Position numbers and translations under genes: made by a program | Part shown: positions 15,440 to 28,731 of the stretch, in pieces | How positions within the stretch are numbered: position 1 is the first letter of the stretch | Layout of the letters: each line of letters opens with the position of its first letter | The notes under the pieces: model-generated | What the model was told of the DNA's origin: nothing | The model's database searches: none | Seen by the model: only the letters and a program-made list of their open reading frames with translations | NCBI RefSeq assembly: GCF_001462395.1 | Contig: NZ_LNTB01000001.1 | Span: 1,260,001-1,292,000 of the forward strand | Direction of reading: 5' to 3' | DNA: 32,000 nt | From: Pyrodictium occultum | GTDB lineage: Archaea > Thermoproteota > Thermoprotei_A > Sulfolobales > Pyrodictiaceae

Positions 15440-16735
15440 GTGGTGCCCAGGTACTGGTACAACATTGTGGCGGATCTCCCGGAGCCGCTGCCGCCCCTCA
15501 TCGACCCGCTCGACGACGAGGAGTCGAGGATAGCGCTGCTGGTGAGGATACTCCCCTCCAGGCTGATAGACGAGGAGTACACGCTGAGCAGGCTCATCCC
15601 GATACCAGAGAGGATACGCGAGGCCTACGCCAGGGCGGGGAGGCCTACCCCGCTGCTCCGCGCCGAGGGGCTGGAGAGGGCGCTGGGCGTGAGCGGGAGG
15701 GTGAGGATCTACTACAAGTACGAGGGCGCCCTGCCCACGGGGAGCCATAAGCTGAACACGGCGCTACCCCAGGTCTACTACGCGCTCCTGGACGGAGCGG
15801 AGGAGGTGGCCACCGAGACGGGGGCGGGCCAGTGGGGCCTCGCGGTCGCCACAGCGGCGGCCATGCTGGGTGTCAAGGCGACGGTGTTCATGACTAGGAG
15901 CAGCTACGAGCGGAAGAAGCCCAGGAGGCTCGCAATGCAGGCCATGGGCGCCACGGTGTACCCCAGCCCCAGCAGGGTCACCGAGGCTGGGAGGAGGGCG
16001 CTGGAGGAGAGGCCCGACCACCCCGGTAGCCTGGGCCTCGCCATAACGGAGGCTATAGAGTACGTGCTTGGGAACCCCAAGCGCCGCTACGTAGCCGGCT
16101 CAGTCATGGAGAGCGTCGTTACCCACCAGACGGTGATAGGCCAGGAGGTTCTCCAGCAGCTGCCGGAGGAGCCGGACTACATGGTAGCCTGCGTCGGCGG
16201 AGGCAGCAACCTGGCCGGGTTCACCTACCCCGCTATAGGGATGAGGCTCCGCGGCGAGGGCTTCGAGAAGACCCGCTTCGTGGCGGCTGAGTCGGCGGCA
16301 GCCCCCCGGCTGACGAAGGGGAGCTACAGGTACGACGGCCTAGACACCGGCCTGGTCCTCCCCCTGGCGAGGATGTACAGCCTCGGCAAGGACTACGTGC
16401 CGCCCCCGATACACGCTGCCGGGCTCCGCTACCACGGGGCCGCCGCGAGCCTCTCGCTGCTGCGCAGGCTCGGTCTGGTGGAGGCCGTGGCCTACGGCCA
16501 GGAGGAGGTGTTCGAGGCGGCCCGGATCTTCGCCCGCTCCGAGGCCCTGCTCCCGGCGCCGGAGAGCGCCCACGCGATAAGGGCTGTGATCGACATCGCC
16601 CGCCGCGCGCCCAAGGGCACGGTGATAGCTTTCAACCTCAGCGGCCACGGGCTCATGGATATCGACGCCTACGAGACTCTCTCCTCCAGGATAGTCGAGG
16701 GCAGGCTCCCCGAGCCCACGGGGACCAGGAGGTGA
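15440..16735 (+). CDS. trpB: Tryptophan synthase beta chain, TrpB2 type
   Basis: 431 aa with a GTG start 2 nt after the trpA stop. It has the TrpB2-type N-terminus (PRYWYNIVADLPEPLPP), the PLP lysine context (LPTGSHKLNTAL), and GGGSNLAG. The length is that of TrpB2 rather than TrpB1. Confidence 0.9.
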   Translation: MVPRYWYNIVADLPEPLPPLIDPLDDEESRIALLVRILPSRLIDEEYTLSRLIPIPERIREAYARAGRPTPLLRAEGLERALGVSGRVRIYYKYEGALPTGSHKLNTALPQVYYALLDGAEEVATETGAGQWGLAVATAAAMLGVKATVFMTRSSYERKKPRRLAMQAMGATVYPSPSRVTEAGRRALEERPDHPGSLGLAITEAIEYVLGNPKRRYVAGSVMESVVTHQTVIGQEVLQQLPEEPDYMVACVGGGSNLAGFTYPAIGMRLRGEGFEKTRFVAAESAAAPRLTKGSYRYDGLDTGLVLPLARMYSLGKDYVPPPIHAAGLRYHGAAASLSLLRRLGLVEAVAYGQEEVFEAARIFARSEALLPAPESAHAIRAVIDIARRAPKGTVIAFNLSGHGLMDIDAYETLSSRIVEGRLPEPTGTRR

Positions 16736-17772
16736 CCGCGGCTGTGGCCGACCTCCCCAGGCTGCTGGAGGACCTGCTCTCCGGCCGCGGCATGGGCTTC
16801 GAGGAGGCCAGGAGCGTCGCCCTAGAGATGCTCCGGGGCGGCCTGGACGACGTGGCTATAGCGGCGATACTGGTCGCCCTGAGGGCCAAGGGCGAGACAG
16901 CGGAGACGGTGGCGGGCTTCTCGGCAGCGCTGCGCGAGACCTGCGTGAAGGTGCCCGCCGGGGGCCTGGAGCCGATAGACACCGCCGGCACCGGCGGAGA
17001 CGGGGCCCACACGCTCAACGCCTCCACCGCGGCCGCGATAGTCGCCGCTAGCCTGGGCGCCAGGGTGGCCAAGCACGGTAACCGCGGCGTGAGCAGCAGG
17101 AGCGGGAGCGCCGACTTCATGGAGGCCCTGGGCTACCGGATCGACCACGGCCCCGCCGAGGCCGCCTGCATGCTCAGCCGCGCCGGCTTCGCCTTCCTCT
17201 ACGCGCCCCGCTACCACCCGGCAATGAAGAGGGTGATGCCGGTCCGCAGGAGGCTCGGGATAAGGACGGTCTTCAACCTTGTGGGCCCCCTCTCCAACCC
17301 CGCCGGGGTGCGCCGCCAGGTGCTCGGCGTCGCGAGGCCCGAGCTGCTCGAGGTCATGGCGGGGGCGGCCCGGCTGCTGGGCTACGAGAGGCTCCTCCTG
17401 GTCCACGGCGAGCCAGGGATAGACGAGGTCAGCGTCTCCGGCAGGACCACCGTCTACGAGATCCGGGGCGGCAGGGTGGAGGAGTACAGCATAGAGCCCG
17501 AGGACCTGGGGCTCGGCCGCCACCGGCTGGCGGACCTCCGGGTGGAGGCGCCCGGGGAGAGCGTGGAGCGCTTCCTAGCCGTGGCCCGCGGCGCCGGGAG
17601 GAGGCAGGACCGCGACTTCATAGCAGCCAACGCGGCCGCGGCAATCTACGCTGCAGGGCTGGCGGGGAGCCTCAGGGACGCCGCCGAGCAGGCCCTCCAG
17701 GCCCTCGGGGACGGCACAGTGGCGGCCTACCTTGAGAGGCTCGTGGAGGCCTGCAGGGCTTGCTGCGGCTAA
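16732..17772 (+). CDS. trpD: Anthranilate phosphoribosyltransferase
   Basis: The GTG start overlaps the trpB stop (GTGA). Motifs seen: DTAGTGGDGAHTLNASTAAAIVAASLG, KHGNRGVSSRSGSADFMEALG. Confidence 0.93.
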   Translation: MTAAVADLPRLLEDLLSGRGMGFEEARSVALEMLRGGLDDVAIAAILVALRAKGETAETVAGFSAALRETCVKVPAGGLEPIDTAGTGGDGAHTLNASTAAAIVAASLGARVAKHGNRGVSSRSGSADFMEALGYRIDHGPAEAACMLSRAGFAFLYAPRYHPAMKRVMPVRRRLGIRTVFNLVGPLSNPAGVRRQVLGVARPELLEVMAGAARLLGYERLLLVHGEPGIDEVSVSGRTTVYEIRGGRVEEYSIEPEDLGLGRHRLADLRVEAPGESVERFLAVARGAGRRQDRDFIAANAAAAIYAAGLAGSLRDAAEQALQALGDGTVAAYLERLVEACRACCG

Positions 17773-18416
17773 AGATCTGCGGGCTCACCCGGCCAGAGGA
17801 CGTGGAGGCGCTCGACGGCGCCGCCGACTACCTGGGCTTCGTGGTCGCCCCGTCGAGGCTGAGCCCCCGCGTGCTGAGCCCCGGGGAGGCCAGGAGCCTG
17901 GCCGAGACCGTGTCTAGGAGCCGCCCCGTCCTGGTGGCGGCCGGCTATGGGCCCCGCGACGCAGTGGAGCTGGCGGCGAGGCTCGAGGCGTTCAGGGTGC
18001 TCCAGTACCACGAGCCCGCGGGCCCCGAGGTGCTCGCCGGCCTGGCCAGGGAGCTGGGCTCGATAGGAGTCTCCCTGGCCCCCGTCTCCCTCTGGGACGG
18101 CAGGAGGCTGAGCCCAGACCCCTGCGAGGCGGCGACCGTGGCGCCGGGGCACGAGTACCTCCTAGTGGACGCCGTCAAGGGGCTGGGCCTCCGCTACGCC
18201 GGGGGCCTGAGGGCGCCCCTCGAGGCGTACCTCCGGGCGGCAGTGTGCAGCAGCCGCGCGGCAGCCGCCGGCGGGGTGGTGCCGGAGAACGCCTGCCTCG
18301 TCGCCTCCACCGGGGTCTCGATGCTCGACGTGAGCAGCGGCGTCGAGGCCGAGCCGGGCCGCAAGGACCTCTCCAGGGTGGAGAAGCTGCTGGAGGTGCT
18401 GCGCTCATGCAGCTAG
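17760..18416 (+). CDS. trpF: Phosphoribosylanthranilate isomerase
   Basis: TTG start with a 13-nt overlap with trpD. The LKICGLTRPEDV N-terminus and the ~218-aa length fit TrpF. Confidence 0.85.
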   Translation: MLRLKICGLTRPEDVEALDGAADYLGFVVAPSRLSPRVLSPGEARSLAETVSRSRPVLVAAGYGPRDAVELAARLEAFRVLQYHEPAGPEVLAGLARELGSIGVSLAPVSLWDGRRLSPDPCEAATVAPGHEYLLVDAVKGLGLRYAGGLRAPLEAYLRAAVCSSRAAAAGGVVPENACLVASTGVSMLDVSSGVEAEPGRKDLSRVEKLLEVLRSCS

Positions 18417-19699
18417 ACTGGGCCGGGTGCCGCCGCGTCCCCCTCCCAAGCGCCCCGGAGCCCCGCCGGCTGGCGGTGTGGGCGGAGGAGCGCTACGGCT
18501 ATGTCGCGCTGCTCGAGAGCGGCGCGGGGCCGGGGGAGAAGGCCCGCTACACCCTGGTGGCCTACGGGGCCCGCCGGGTGGTGGAGGGCAGCCCCCTGGA
18601 GGCCTACGCCAGGCTCCGCGAGGCAGCCGCGGGCAGGGGCTGCGCCAGCATCCCCTGCAGGAGCATGCTCTTCGGCGTGGTCGGCTACGAGGCGGTGGCC
18701 GGGGCGGAGCCCTGGCTGGCCCCGATGCTGGGCCGCCACGAGTGGCCGGCGCTCCTAGTCTTCGAGCCCGAGACCCTCGTGGTCTACGACCACGCCAGGG
18801 GCCACGCCACGCTCTGCCCCGGGGACGCCGAGGCCGGGGAGAAGCCTCTCGGCGGCTGGAGCCCGGCCAGGGGCCCCGTGGAGGAGACGCCCCGCAGGCT
18901 CTTCGAGCAGTGGGTGGCAGAGGCCAGGGAGATGCTTGAGAGGGGCGAGTTCCTACAAGTAGTGCTCTCGAGATTCGAGCGCTACGAGTACCAGGGCGAG
19001 CCGCTGGCGCTCTACGCCAGGCTGGCGGACCGGAACCCCTCCCCCTACATGTTCTACATGAGGCTGGGGGAGAGGTGGATAGCCGGCTCCAGCCCCGAGC
19101 TGCTCGTCAGGATGGACGGGGGGAGGCTGGAGACGCACCCTATAGCCGGGACCCGGCCCCGCGGCAGGACGCCGGAGGAGGACCTGGCCCTCGAGGAGGA
19201 GCTGCTGGGCGACGAGAAGGAGAGGGCGGAGCACCTCATGCTCGTCGACCTCGCCAGGAACGACCTGGGCCGGGTAGCGTTGCCCGGCACGGTGAGAGTG
19301 ACGAGGCTCATGGACGTGGAGAAGTACAGCGCGGTCCAGCATATCGTGAGCAGGGTGGAGGCTGTGGCCCGGCCCGGGCTGGGCTACGCCGACGTCCTGG
19401 CAGCGGTCAACCCCGCCGGCACGGTGTCCGGCGCCCCGAAGCCGAGGGCAATGGAGACCATAGCTAGGCTCGAGGACAGGCCCCGCGGCCCCTACGCCGG
19501 CGCCGTCGGGGTCTACTCGGACCAGGCGGGCGAGACAGCCATAGTGATAAGGAGCGTCTGGAGCATAGACGACTCCACGCTGGAGACTAGGGCGGGCGCG
19601 GGGATAGTCTACGACTCCAGGCCCGAGAGAGAGTACATGGAGACCGTACACAAGCTTGCCGCGATCCACCGGGCCCTGGGAGCCGGCGGCGGGAGGTGA
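18407..19699 (+). CDS. trpE: Anthranilate synthase component I
   Basis: The ATG at 18407 overlaps the trpF end by 10 nt. Motifs seen: NPSPYMFYM, SSPELLV, HPIAGTRPRG, EHLMLVDLARNDLGRV, PAGTVSGAPK, RGPYAGAVG. The track start at 18245 is an Arg/Gly-rich artefact. Confidence 0.93.
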   Translation: MQLDWAGCRRVPLPSAPEPRRLAVWAEERYGYVALLESGAGPGEKARYTLVAYGARRVVEGSPLEAYARLREAAAGRGCASIPCRSMLFGVVGYEAVAGAEPWLAPMLGRHEWPALLVFEPETLVVYDHARGHATLCPGDAEAGEKPLGGWSPARGPVEETPRRLFEQWVAEAREMLERGEFLQVVLSRFERYEYQGEPLALYARLADRNPSPYMFYMRLGERWIAGSSPELLVRMDGGRLETHPIAGTRPRGRTPEEDLALEEELLGDEKERAEHLMLVDLARNDLGRVALPGTVRVTRLMDVEKYSAVQHIVSRVEAVARPGLGYADVLAAVNPAGTVSGAPKPRAMETIARLEDRPRGPYAGAVGVYSDQAGETAIVIRSVWSIDDSTLETRAGAGIVYDSRPEREYMETVHKLAAIHRALGAGGGR

Positions 19700-19705
19700 G
19701 CAGGA

Positions 19706-20296
19706 ACGGCCTACGACACCCTAGTCCTCATAATAGACAACTACGACAGCTTCGTCTACAACCTGGTGAACGTGCTCGCGGAGCTCGGGGCCAGGAGCAT
19801 AGTCGTGAGGAACGACGAGATAACCGTGTCGGGGATAGAGAGGATAAACCCGGACAGGATAATAGTCTCGCCGGGCCCCGGCAGCCCCCTCTCCGCCCGC
19901 GATGTAGGCGTGTCCGTGGAGGCCGTGAAGAGGCTCGGCCCCAGGATCCCGGTGCTAGGCGTCTGCCTAGGCCACCAGGTGGTGGGCGTAGCCTACGGCG
20001 CCAAGGTGAGGCGCGCCCGGAGGATAATGCACGGGAAGACGGACGAGATAGAGCACTACGGCGGCAGCCTCTACCGCGGGGTGCCCAGGGTGTTCACCGC
20101 CGCCAGGTACCACAGCCTCGTGCTGGACGAGATCCCCCCAGTGCTGGAGGTCACGGCAAGGAGCAGGAGCGACGGCGAGGTAATGGGGGTCCGGCACCGG
20201 GAGCACCCAGTCCACGGGGTCCAGTTCCACCCGGAGAGCATAGCAACCCCCCACGGCCCCAGGCTGCTCCGCAACTTCCTCGACGACCCGTGGTAG
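19706..20296 (+). CDS. trpG: Anthranilate synthase component II (glutamine amidotransferase); the start codon is anomalous
   Basis: GVCLGHQ (catalytic Cys) and FHPES are present. The conserved N-terminal strand LVLIIDNYDSFVYNL is encoded at 19721-19765, upstream of the first canonical start (GTG 19766). The only plausible initiator is ACG at 19706, 6 nt after a perfect GGAGGTGA. See findings. Confidence 0.8.
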   Translation, partial: TAYDTLVLIIDNYDSFVYNLVNVLAELGARSIVVRNDEITVSGIERINPDRIIVSPGPGSPLSARDVGVSVEAVKRLGPRIPVLGVCLGHQVVGVAYGAKVRRARRIMHGKTDEIEHYGGSLYRGVPRVFTAARYHSLVLDEIPPVLEVTARSRSDGEVMGVRHREHPVHGVQFHPESIATPHGPRLLRNFLDDPW

Positions 20297-20330
20297 AGGC
20301 GCCGGTGCAGGGAAGGAGGCAGGGGCGGCC

Positions 20331-21107
20331 TTGGGGGAGGGGCGTCCTGGAGGCTTCCTGGGGGAGGCTCTCGGGAGGAGCCTGGAGCGCTCCAGGCTGC
20401 TGGGCTCTCCACCGCGGCCCGGCAGCCTCCGCGGCGCGGTGGAGAAGGCCCTCTCCGAGGGGAGGCCCGGGCTGCTGATAGAGTACAAGCGGTGCAGCCC
20501 CGGGGGCTTCGTGGCCTGGCGCACCCCCTGGGAGTACCTGGAGGCCACGCTAAGCGTGGCAGACGCCTACTCGGTGCTGGTGGAGCCCTACTGGTTCTGC
20601 GGCAGCCCCGAGCTGGTGGCCTTCTTCGCCCGCCACCGCCCCGTGCTGGCTAAGGACTTCGCCTCCACCGCCGAGCAGCTCCAGCTGTACCGCCGCCACG
20701 GGGCCTCGGCGGCCCTCCTGATACTGGACATGCTGGGGTGGAGGCGGCTGGACGCGCTCTACCAGGAGGCGAGGAGCCTCGGCCTGGAAGCCCTAATAGA
20801 GACCACGAGCGCGGGCCCGGCGGTGGAGGCGATGAATAGCTACCCCGAGGCCCTGGTGGGGATAAACGCGAGGAACCTGGAGACGCTGGAGGTCAGCTAC
20901 CGGAGGCTCCTAGAGGAGATCGCCCGGGCCGCCGAGAGGAAGCCGAGCAGGGCTCTCCTAGTGGCGGAGAGCAGCATAGACAGCCCCGGGAAGGCCCTGG
21001 AGCTCGCCCGGGCGGGCGCTGACGCGCTCCTCATAGGCACATGGGCCATGAAGAGCCCAGGGGGGCTGGCGGGGCTCCGGGATAGGCTCCGGGGCTCCAG
21101 GAGCTAG
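20331..21107 (+). CDS. trpC: Indole-3-glycerol phosphate synthase
   Basis: TTG start. Motifs seen: LLIEYKRCSPGG (the E-x-K-x-x-SPS-like motif), LVGINARNLETLEV, LVAESSI. Confidence 0.87.
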   Translation: MGEGRPGGFLGEALGRSLERSRLLGSPPRPGSLRGAVEKALSEGRPGLLIEYKRCSPGGFVAWRTPWEYLEATLSVADAYSVLVEPYWFCGSPELVAFFARHRPVLAKDFASTAEQLQLYRRHGASAALLILDMLGWRRLDALYQEARSLGLEALIETTSAGPAVEAMNSYPEALVGINARNLETLEVSYRRLLEEIARAAERKPSRALLVAESSIDSPGKALELARAGADALLIGTWAMKSPGGLAGLRDRLRGSRS

Positions 21108-22330
21108 GGCTTCTTTAGGAGTATCAGCCTGTTAGCCTTCCCCTCCTTAACTATCCTTATGTACCCCATCGCTGCGAGCCTCCGGACGTGCCTCCAGAGC
21201 GTGGTCTTCGGAATCCCGGTCTCCCGGAGCAGCTGGCTCTGGAGCACAGAGCCCCCATGCTCCTCCAGCTTACTGAGGATAAGCAGGTCCACCTCATCCA
21301 GGCCTGTGGATGATATGGGGGCCGCGGCGTTAGAGGGGACGCCGCCCCCGCCGCCAAAAACTCCCCCACGGCGGGCGAGAGCCAGGCCGGCAGCCACGGC
21401 TACCACCAGCACAGCTGCAACTCCTCCTATCAGCGCGGTGCTGGGCCCCTTAGAGCCAGCGGCGGGCGGTGGGCTCGAAGGCCTCCCGGTGGTTGTCGCC
21501 GGCCTCATGGTTGTGGAGAGCCGCGTGGTCGCTAGAGCAGTCGACGTAGTTGCAGGGGCTACGGGCGCTGCCGGGGTAGTGGTGCTTGTTGCAGTTGCCG
21601 TCCTAGCTGTCGTGCTGGCTGTTGTGGTACTCGTGGCTTTAGTCGCCCTTGTTACACTTGTTCTTGTTGTTGTAGTTGTGCCTCCAGGCTTAGCAGCAGC
21701 CTTGGTAGTAGTAGTGGTAGTAGTGAAGGTGGTAGCGGTAGTCTTTGAAGTCTTTGACGCGGGGGTACTTGTAGTCGCAGCGGCCCCGGTCTTAGTCTTT
21801 GCCGTGGCGGTCGGCGGCGTCTGGGGCGCGAGCACGTACCGGATGGTGGCGGGGCCCCTCAGGTACAGCACCACCGTGTTGTTCACTGTTGTGGCGTTCA
21901 CCAGGCCCTCGGGGAGGCTGAGCAGCACTACGCCCGGGCTGACCCTCAGCTCCACCAGGCCGGTGTAGTTCACCAGGAACTGGAGCACACCATTCTGCTC
22001 GGTGACGTTGCCCAGGTAGTCTATGTACACGCTCCCCCTCCCCGAGGCGGCCACGTAGATCTTGCCGCCGCTGTAGATAGCGGAGACGAGGCTCCCGCCG
22101 AGCCTAGCCTCTATCGTGGCGGGTATCGCTGGTACCGGGGCAGGGTACTCGTTCATCCCCGGCTCCGCGGTGCCCCATATCTCCACCACGACGGTCCCGT
22201 CGTCCCGTATAGTGACCACTGGCGTCTTGGAGAGCTCCGCGTGCGCGGCGGCGGAGAAGGCGAGCAGCAGCATGGCCGCCGGCAGCGCTATGCAGAGCAA
22301 CACCCGGCTCATCGCTTCTCCTCCCTCCAT
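21104..22330 (-). CDS. Membrane-tethered winged-helix protein: signal peptide, ~135-aa beta-rich ectodomain, ~130-aa Thr-rich stalk, one TM helix, C-terminal cytoplasmic wHTH
   Basis: Signal peptide MSRVLLCIALPAAMLLLAFSAAAHA|E. The Thr/Ala/Pro-rich low-complexity region spans aa ~169-297 (21440-21826). The TM helix ALIGGVAAVLVVAVAAGLALA is followed by RRGG. The C-terminal DLLILSKLEEHGGSVLQSQLLRETGIPKTTLWRHVRRLAAMGYIRIVKEGKANRLIL has a MarR/TrmB-like wHTH pattern. The start is 22330 or the Met at 22312. Confidence 0.8.
   Translation of the reverse strand: MEGGEAMSRVLLCIALPAAMLLLAFSAAAHAELSKTPVVTIRDDGTVVVEIWGTAEPGMNEYPAPVPAIPATIEARLGGSLVSAIYSGGKIYVAASGRGSVYIDYLGNVTEQNGVLQFLVNYTGLVELRVSPGVVLLSLPEGLVNATTVNNTVVLYLRGPATIRYVLAPQTPPTATAKTKTGAAATTSTPASKTSKTTATTFTTTTTTTKAAAKPGGTTTTTRTSVTRATKATSTTTASTTARTATATSTTTPAAPVAPATTSTALATTRLSTTMRPATTTGRPSSPPPAAGSKGPSTALIGGVAAVLVVAVAAGLALARRGGVFGGGGGVPSNAAAPISSTGLDEVDLLILSKLEEHGGSVLQSQLLRETGIPKTTLWRHVRRLAAMGYIRIVKEGKANRLILLKKP

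Positions 22331-28139: not shown

Positions 28140-28731
<592 letters not shown>

Follow-up and report, generated by a model that had tools for sequence, protein, structure and literature searches.

The window analyzed here, 32,000 nucleotides of the genome of the hyperthermophilic archaeon Pyrodictium occultum (60-73% G+C), encodes a tryptophan biosynthesis (trp) operon: trpB (15440-16735), trpD, trpF (17760-18416), trpE (18407-19699), trpG, and trpC (20331-21107). The order trpD-trpF-trpE-trpG-trpC is common to the window and its relatives, and trpG, which encodes the glutamine amidotransferase of anthranilate synthase, adjoins trpE as a member of the operon would. This trpG has no ATG, GTG, or TTG where the protein should begin. 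We lean towards the view that it is a functional gene and that its translation would start, under the direction of a Shine-Dalgarno (SD) sequence, at a near-cognate ACG codon, possibly aided by ribosomes that terminate on trpE. The features of the trpE-trpG junction and of trpG are:

18407 to 19699, forward strand: trpE (anthranilate synthase component I), 430 amino acids, stop codon TGA at 19697-19699
19692 to 19699, forward strand: SD 8-mer GGAGGTGA; its final three bases, TGA, form the stop codon of trpE
19700 to 19705, forward strand: spacer GCAGGA, 6 nt, between the SD/stop and the ACG
19706 to 19708, forward strand: ACG, the proposed near-cognate initiation codon of trpG (from the alignment of orthologues; identical in three assemblies)
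19706 to 20296, forward strand: trpG (anthranilate synthase glutamine amidotransferase), 196 amino acids in the proposed model, stop codon at 20294-20296
19721 to 19735, forward strand: codons of strand beta1 (LVLII, residues 6-10; DSSP on the AlphaFold2 model, and aligned with residues 3-7 of 1QDL_B)
19730 to 19735, forward strand: two ATA codons, the starts of the NCBI models (19730 for the 188-amino-acid KSW12427.1/WP_058371111.1; 19733 for the 187-amino-acid WP_269082829.1)
19766 to 19768, forward strand: GTG, the first canonical in-frame start (176-amino-acid model called on Logan contigs), with no SD

The ACG codon and its Shine-Dalgarno site

The first-pass annotation of this DNA pointed out that the trpE frame ends at the TGA at 19697-19699 and that trpG continues in the same frame, and this is what the sequence holds. 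After the TGA there are indeed 22 sense codons (AGTAYDTLVLIIDNYDSFVYNL) without an ATG, GTG, or TTG: GCA GGA ACG (at 19706) GCC TAC GAC ACC CTA GTC CTC ATA ATA GAC AAC TAC, followed by GAC AGC TTC GTC TAC AAC CTG, and then the GTG at 19766. The trpE product matches the archaeal NCBIfam models for TrpE at E of about 1e-115, and the extent of the gene is identical in the gene call from another assembly (L084, described below). The trpG translation is 99% identical to the annotated TrpG of P. occultum and 83% identical to TrpG from P. delaneyi and P. abyssi. When it begins at the ACG, it scores 209.3 bits against TIGR00566 (TrpG/PabA; the cut-off is 121.05) and covers positions 2-191 of the 192 in the profile. 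A canonical start within 3-30 codons before the DNYDSF motif is absent from just 1 of 86 other trpG loci, and that locus (L001) is in a metagenome-assembled genome (MAG).

The ACG is a real base call. The Logan assemblies of two independent public runs, DRR667394 (L084) and SRR5453782 (L085), have the same ACG. In L084, the trpG locus is on a 62-kb contig that matches the window at 99.954% identity across 6531 nt, with 3 single-nucleotide polymorphisms (SNPs); in L085, the locus is on a 1.9-kb contig that is identical to the window over 1898 nt. The differences in L084 are at 19765, 20892, and 22608, and the first of these (G>T) is synonymous in the trpG frame. Since it differs at these three positions away from the ACG, L084 cannot be a duplicate of the reference assembly; the differences suggest a different culture line or strain, or else assembly noise. 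The assembly of the reference itself, a genome of 1.6 Mb, drew on 22.5 million MiSeq reads (PMC4767911).

We recovered the trpE-trpG junctions of relatives through protein matches and then aligned them. The codon that aligns with the ACG, directly before the codons for A-Y-D-T (GCC-TAC-GAC-ACC in P. occultum), differs by lineage:

P. delaneyi (two genomes): TTG
P. abyssi: ATG
metagenome relative L087: GTG
metagenome relative L088: ATG
Pyrolobus fumarii: GTG
P. occultum: ACG

Thus, in the codon alignment, the ACG stands opposite the start codon (TTG, ATG, or GTG) of five Pyrodictiaceae orthologues, and the first-pass annotation's question of whether relatives have ATG at this place is answered by P. 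abyssi and L088, which do. The annotated N-termini of the orthologues are MAYDTLVLIIDNYDSF, MADTLVLIIDNYDSF, or MAGDTLVLLIDNYDSF, that is, the proteins start with MAYDT, MADT, or MAGDT and continue with LVLIIDNYDSF. Given this alignment with the relatives' starts and their annotated N-termini, the ACG at 19706 is the positional orthologue of their start codons, one transition away from ATG. The trpG genes of P. abyssi (AP028907.1) and P. delaneyi (CP013011.1) resemble that of P. occultum in the operon order trpB-D-F-E-G-C, in the N-terminus AYDTLVLIIDNYDSF of their 83%-identical products, and in the position of the start, but they have canonical start codons (ATG and TTG, respectively) and weaker SDs (-5.8 and -8.6 versus -14.2 kcal/mol). 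A metagenome scan for closer relatives gave, among the matches listed, identities of just 48-60%.

A perfect SD 8-mer, GGAGGTGA, lies at 19692-19699, 6 nt (19700-19705) before the ACG, as the first-pass annotation had described. Duplex energies were computed against the assumed archaeal 16S 3' tail GAUCACCUCC. The energy is -14.2 kcal/mol for the SD of the ACG, and the trpG orthologues compared range from -5.8 to -12.3 kcal/mol, all of them weaker. For the other candidate codons at the 5' end of trpG (ATA 19730, ATA 19733, CTG 19763, and GTG 19766), the energy is about -1 kcal/mol, that is, no SD, so the ACG is the only near-cognate codon at this end that is served by an SD site. Every internal gene of the trp operon has an SD 6-11 nt before its start: trpE has GGAGGTG 8 nt before ATG 18407, trpF and trpC have GGAGG 10-11 nt before their starts, and trpD has GGAGGTGA 8 nt before GTG 16744. 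The trpD copy is the comparator for the trpE-trpG junction:

16728 to 16735, forward strand: GGAGGTGA at the trpB/trpD junction, with the trpB stop codon TGA (16733-16735) embedded

(The start of trpD is ambiguous: it could be GTG 16732, which overlaps the stop as GTGA and has zero spacer to the SD, or the in-frame GTG 16744.) There are 3 copies of GGAGGTGA in the window, against 1.4 expected when both strands are counted, and two of the three are at trp junctions (trpB/trpD and trpE/trpG) with the TGA of the upstream gene embedded. This implies that the placement of GGAGGTGA 6 nt before the orthologous start position is not due to chance. Furthermore, because the copies at the trp junctions share an embedded TGA, the trpE stop is explained as part of the SD 8-mer, and read-through is not needed to account for it. 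We folded the junction and found no RNA structure that would hide the SD or promote read-through; the junction RNA folds less readily than shuffled controls (z = +1.6), which should leave the SD/start site accessible.

The gene that follows the ACG is intact. All 196 codons of trpG are open, with no frameshifts, stops, or losses of catalytic residues, and the catalytic triad (C87, H175, and E177) is in place, in invariant columns of the alignment. The pairwise ratio of non-synonymous to synonymous substitution rates (dN/dS) is 0.15 for P. occultum trpG against either P. delaneyi or P. abyssi, and 0.055 for P. delaneyi against P. abyssi. In codons 2-20 (the 19 codons from the ACG to GTG 19766), there are 4 synonymous and 0 non-synonymous changes relative to each of these two species, which, on this codon comparison, shows that the part of trpG that precedes every canonical start has been used as protein-coding sequence. 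Judged from its codons, trpG is an intact gene under purifying selection. A crude parsimony count for the P. occultum branch of trpG gave 26 non-synonymous and 23 synonymous changes, but this count is biased by the saturation of synonymous sites and overstates dN/dS. The changes specific to P. occultum hint at a somewhat relaxed constraint. P. occultum is an obligate chemoautotroph (PMC4767911) and therefore needs its own tryptophan synthesis.

We also considered GTG 19696, which overlaps the trpE TGA by four nucleotides (GTGA), as the start of trpG. It is in the +1 frame relative to trpG, there is no slippery heptamer between it and the conserved region, and the SD abuts it with zero spacer, so we rejected it. 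From this GTG, a 260-amino-acid open reading frame (ORF; 19696-20478, forward strand, +1 frame) spans all of trpG; it looks like a GC-rich shadow ORF and not a gene.

As for the rest of the window, a 408-amino-acid ORF (21104-22330, reverse strand) is convergent with trpC. Its middle is long, of low complexity, and rich in Thr, Ala, and Pro, and its C-terminus is a winged-helix region (MarR_2, HTH_24, and DUF7343 match the products from L084 and P. delaneyi). P. abyssi has an ORF of similar size at this position, with no Pfam hit on record. The sole RNA gene in the window, according to Rfam and ARAGORN, is a tRNA-Ala(TGC) (28655-28731, reverse strand); we had considered a special tRNA in the window and rejected it, as this tRNA-Ala alone was detected and Rfam gave nothing further. 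A scan with bacterial promoter and terminator models gave two matches, in AT-richer coding stretches, and these models are uninformative for an archaeon.

How TrpG could be made from the ACG

Among the three options that the first-pass annotation listed for the origin of TrpG, initiation at the ACG is the best supported, as this codon is both the positional orthologue of the relatives' starts and the only near-cognate codon served by an SD. We propose that an ancestral ATG mutated to ACG by a T-to-C transition at 19707. The 8-nt SD GGAGGTGA, which overlaps the trpE stop, would position the 30S subunit, and ribosomes that have just finished trpE, 6 nt upstream, may supply some of these subunits. 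The initiator Met-tRNA would then pair imperfectly with ACG 19706 to yield, at a reduced rate, a 196-amino-acid TrpG that starts M-A-Y-D-T-L-V-L-I-I-D-N-Y-D-S-F like its orthologues. We infer the decoding of the ACG by the initiator tRNA, the level of expression, and the contribution of termination-reinitiation from the sequence.

Studies of other organisms give some guidance as to whether this would work. In E. coli, ACG belongs to a class of start codons that yield 0.1-1% of the expression from AUG, and the product has an N-terminal Met (bioRxiv 10.1101/063800). Ribosome profiling in Haloferax volcanii found that about 30% of putative alternative initiation sites were near-cognate, although the authors set these aside (PMC7261190). 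In prokaryotes generally, the weaker a start codon, the stronger its SD site tends to be (PMC5622118), and the maximal SD before the ACG fits this pattern. By analogy with these three precedents, an ACG start is plausible but weak. SD-dependent initiation on internal cistrons is established for Crenarchaeota (PMC7531240, PMC4705826).

By distance, trpE and trpG are candidates for a coupled pair, with +6 nt from stop to start and an SD that overlaps the stop. In Haloferax and E. coli, termination-reinitiation takes place at overlaps or very short distances, often with the SD in the upstream gene, and it is enriched among genes for the subunits of heteromeric complexes; in H. volcanii, a distance of +13 nt cuts reinitiation by about 60%, and none is left at +22 nt (PMC6728339, PMC10666635). 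Like these coupled pairs, trpE and trpG have the SD in the 3' end of the upstream gene, a stop and a proposed restart codon that are 6 nt apart, and products that belong to the same heteromeric enzyme. Typical pairs differ in that they share 4 or 1 nt and have ATG or GTG as the restart codon. One Sulfolobus gene pair was uncoupled in vitro.

Several points weigh against initiation at the ACG. ACG is outside the accepted start codons of translation table 11, and we found no documented archaeal ACG start in the literature that we searched. (One match mentioned ACG, and it concerned a viral tRNA-Thr instead of a start codon.) In vitro, the Sulfolobus initiation factor aIF1 discriminates against the near-cognate codon AUU (PMC4705826). 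If ACG were as inefficient in P. occultum as it is in E. coli, then 0.1-1% of the expression from AUG may be too little for a 1:1 complex of TrpE and TrpG. The anti-SD GAUCACCUCC was assumed from general knowledge rather than read from the P. occultum genome (the window has no rRNA gene). The ACG is seen only in assemblies of P. occultum, while relatives have ATG, TTG, GTG, or CTG. The non-canonical codon thus lacks the conservation across species that is the hallmark of regulatory cases such as the AUU of infC. Finally, the change from ATG to ACG cannot be dated, and purifying selection over the whole branch is no proof of selection after the change. Given all this, a natural ACG start in P. 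occultum trpG is credible but unproven from sequence.

We also considered conversion of C to U in the mRNA, which would restore AUG, and judged it to be negligible, given how deamination rates generally compare with the lifetimes of mRNAs. To our knowledge, no mRNA editing is known in Crenarchaeota.

Other readings of the locus

The alternative that fares best is that the ACG marks a hypomorphic or effectively silenced allele: a recent and slightly deleterious loss of the start codon, after which TrpG is scarce or absent, anthranilate is formed by TrpE on its own from free ammonia, and trpG looks intact only for lack of time to decay. We give this a minor share of the probability. TrpE can use NH3 without TrpG, and the non-canonical codon is confined to one species while relatives keep ATG, TTG, or GTG. 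The parsimony count for P. occultum (26 non-synonymous changes, 23 synonymous) and the dN/dS of 0.15 as compared to 0.055 are compatible with some relaxation, but the count under-samples saturated synonymous sites and so overstates dN/dS. On the other side, the 196 codons have no frameshift, stop, or loss of a catalytic residue; the 19 N-terminal codons are perfectly conserved at the protein level; the SD has not decayed and is the strongest among the orthologues; and assemblies with SNPs between them have the ACG in common. Both the intact ORF and the strong SD speak against a long-standing loss.

There is a small chance that translation instead starts at ATA 19730 or 19733, as in the NCBI models, to give a TrpG of 187-188 amino acids that begins M(I)DNYDSF. 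ATA is allowed as a rare start in translation table 11, and NCBI chose it in both of its protein models. In E. coli, two sets of constructs with ATA gave 1-2% and 0.02-3%, respectively, of the expression from AUG (bioRxiv 10.1101/063800). However, neither ATA has an SD within 22 nt (-0.7 to -1.5 kcal/mol). The AlphaFold2 model of TrpG from the ACG start, which was built from a 31-sequence alignment, has a predicted local distance difference test (pLDDT) score of 95 and a predicted template modeling (pTM) score of 0.92; with the ACG as residue 1, DSSP assigns strand beta1 to residues 6-10 (LVLII) and helix 1 to residues 16-26. In the alignment with the solved TrpG of S. solfataricus (1QDL_B), residue 3 of the latter aligns to residue 6 of P. 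occultum. An ATA start would remove 3-4 of the 5 residues of this core strand. It would also make P. occultum TrpG an outlier: 118 of the 120 best homologues have 4-10 residues before DNYDSF (the other two have more), while the NCBI models have just 1-2 (MIDNYDSF from 19730 and MDNYDSF from 19733) and are the only 2 of 122 family members with fewer than 4. Furthermore, the upstream residues AYDTLVL are the same as in the orthologues, with only synonymous changes in the DNA.

Read-through of the trpE TGA, another option of the first-pass annotation, would yield a TrpE-TrpG fusion of about 69 kDa and would need no separate initiation. The TGA at 19697-19699 is in frame with trpG and is 2 codons before the ACG, families of fused proteins with TrpG at the C-terminus exist (TIGR01815 and PRK13566), and the other trpG locus without a canonical start (L001) likewise has an in-frame TGA. 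Read-through itself gains no support. Relatives do not all keep the two genes in one frame: P. delaneyi and the loci L088, L002, L089, and L090 have them in different frames. In the first 8 lineages compared (the window, L081, L083, L086, L087, L088, L001, and L002), 5 have the trpE stop and the trpG start in one frame, against an expected third or so; this is not significant, and the lineages are related. As at trpB/trpD, the SD 8-mer already explains the TGA, and a fusion would have no need of a strong SD. Folding gave no stable structure after the stop (z = +1.6); archaeal read-through signals are not defined. Although the domain order of the natural fusions is as in the read-through product, they are single ORFs with a longer linker (about 22 profile positions, compared to the roughly 13 residues that a P. 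occultum fusion would have), and P. occultum has a stop codon and an SD between trpE and trpG. Also, unprogrammed read-through would yield far less TrpG than TrpE. On this evidence, TGA read-through is unlikely and we give it a slim chance.

Initiation at GTG 19766, which would give a 176-amino-acid protein, is very improbable. This is the sole in-frame ATG, GTG, or TTG of the region, but as the first-pass annotation had argued, starting there would delete the conserved strand; judged by the AlphaFold2 model, it would cost the protein beta1, the invariant loop (DNYDSF), and some of helix 1. The 176-amino-acid model enters the TIGR00566 profile only at position 18, there is no SD, and among the homologues compared, no orthologue starts at the equivalent of this codon. 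The 187- and 188-amino-acid RefSeq/GenBank models and the 176-amino-acid automatic call probably lack a core beta-strand and have the wrong start.

Finally, that the ACG is a sequencing or assembly error and the true codon is ATG can practically be dismissed, given that three assemblies from separate read sets agree at 19706-19708 and that the reference has very high Illumina depth behind it (PMC4767911). The first-pass annotation had joined this error to a T-to-C mutation of an ancestral ATG as its third option; the mutation survives as the likely origin of the ACG, given the ATG of P. abyssi, and it complements initiation at the ACG instead of competing with it.

Near-cognate codons in relatives and what they may mean

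Near-cognate codons are also found at the trpE-trpG junction of other relatives. The codon at the orthologous trpG start is CTG in Stetteria hydrogenophila (L090:1486-1503, from DRR667203; CTG GCT GAC ACC CTG GTG) and in the JGI contig Ga0072504_103552 (L089:1486-1503; CTG CCT GAC ACC CTG GTG). In both, a strong SD lies 3-5 nt before the CTG (-12.3 kcal/mol in L090 and -13.1 kcal/mol in L089). The annotated start, five codons further on, is a GTG that encodes the Val of beta1 and has no good SD before it (-3.6 and -4.3 kcal/mol, respectively). In neither locus does the trpE TGA share a frame with trpG, so read-through cannot explain them.

A third locus is in the Desulfurococcales MAG CAYZCH010000011.1 (L001:2968-3003). 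It has no ATG, GTG, or TTG between the in-frame trpE TGA and DNYSSF, and its trpG gene call (P0059) is truncated to 163 amino acids. The candidate starts are CTG 3001, with GAGG 6 nt upstream, and AGG 2992, with an SD of -14.2 kcal/mol 7 nt upstream. The nearest relative of this locus (L171) has a GTG one codon before the position of the CTG. An assembly indel in the MAG is another possible cause of the loss of the start. Both loci without any canonical start, this one and that of P. occultum, have an in-frame TGA.

To judge from these sequences, the recurrence of near-cognate codons at the trpE-trpG junction in the clade raises the chance that they are tolerated as starts, though weak selection on the expression of TrpG could also account for it. 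A broader reading is that Pyrodictiaceae and related hyperthermophilic Desulfurococcales accept near-cognate starts at SD-led cistrons within operons. The cases behind it are the ACG of P. occultum, the CTG of Stetteria and Ga0072504_103552, and possibly the CTG or AGG of CAYZCH01, and we offer it tentatively, as a generalization that we consider doubtful. The truncated models of Stetteria (190 amino acids), P0027 (191 amino acids), and P0059 (163 amino acids) probably have the same cause as the models of P. occultum.

We view the P. occultum trpG, as far as a single gene and its sequence can indicate, as a variant of a known phenomenon, near-cognate initiation. ACG is found at the initiator position of functional genes in eukaryotes and viruses, where its use relies on scanning or a Kozak context, and in chloroplasts, where the mRNA is edited from ACG to AUG (C to U). 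We know of neither mechanism for crenarchaeal mRNAs, and the context at trpG is instead an SD. Closer parallels are the bacterial genes infC (ATT/ATA), Deinococcus dnaA (ATC), and rpsL (CTG), which, like trpG, have no canonical start at the N-terminus that homology requires, have a near-cognate codon at that position, and are truncated by automatic annotation (PMC2830850). In those cases, the codons are conserved across species, are variants at the first or third position, and were proven by N-terminal peptides (PMC2830850). In contrast, the codon in P. occultum trpG is a second-position variant, is specific to one species, was identified from sequence, and is in an archaeon with eukaryote-like initiation factors. 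The ACG reporters of E. coli resemble trpG in having ACG behind a good SD, and they make detectable full-length protein with an N-terminal Met, but they are artificial bacterial constructs that reach 0.1-1% of AUG (bioRxiv 10.1101/063800), while trpG is a native gene of a biosynthetic operon in an archaeon that grows at 105 °C.

If the ACG is used, then it would be a natural second-position near-cognate start in an archaeon, and in a gene that an obligate autotroph needs at 105 °C; we found no such case in the literature that we searched. It would bear on the stringency of start codon selection by archaeal aIF1 and aIF2 when a strong SD fixes the ribosome in place, and on the completeness of translation table 11 for Crenarchaeota. 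If the allele is instead nearly silent, then P. occultum would be a natural example of an anthranilate synthase that runs without its glutaminase subunit. And if the broader reading across the clade is true, then start-codon stringency in these archaea would be looser than table 11 allows, N-termini would be systematically mis-annotated, and the combination of a weak start codon and a maximal SD could set a low ratio of TrpG to TrpE.

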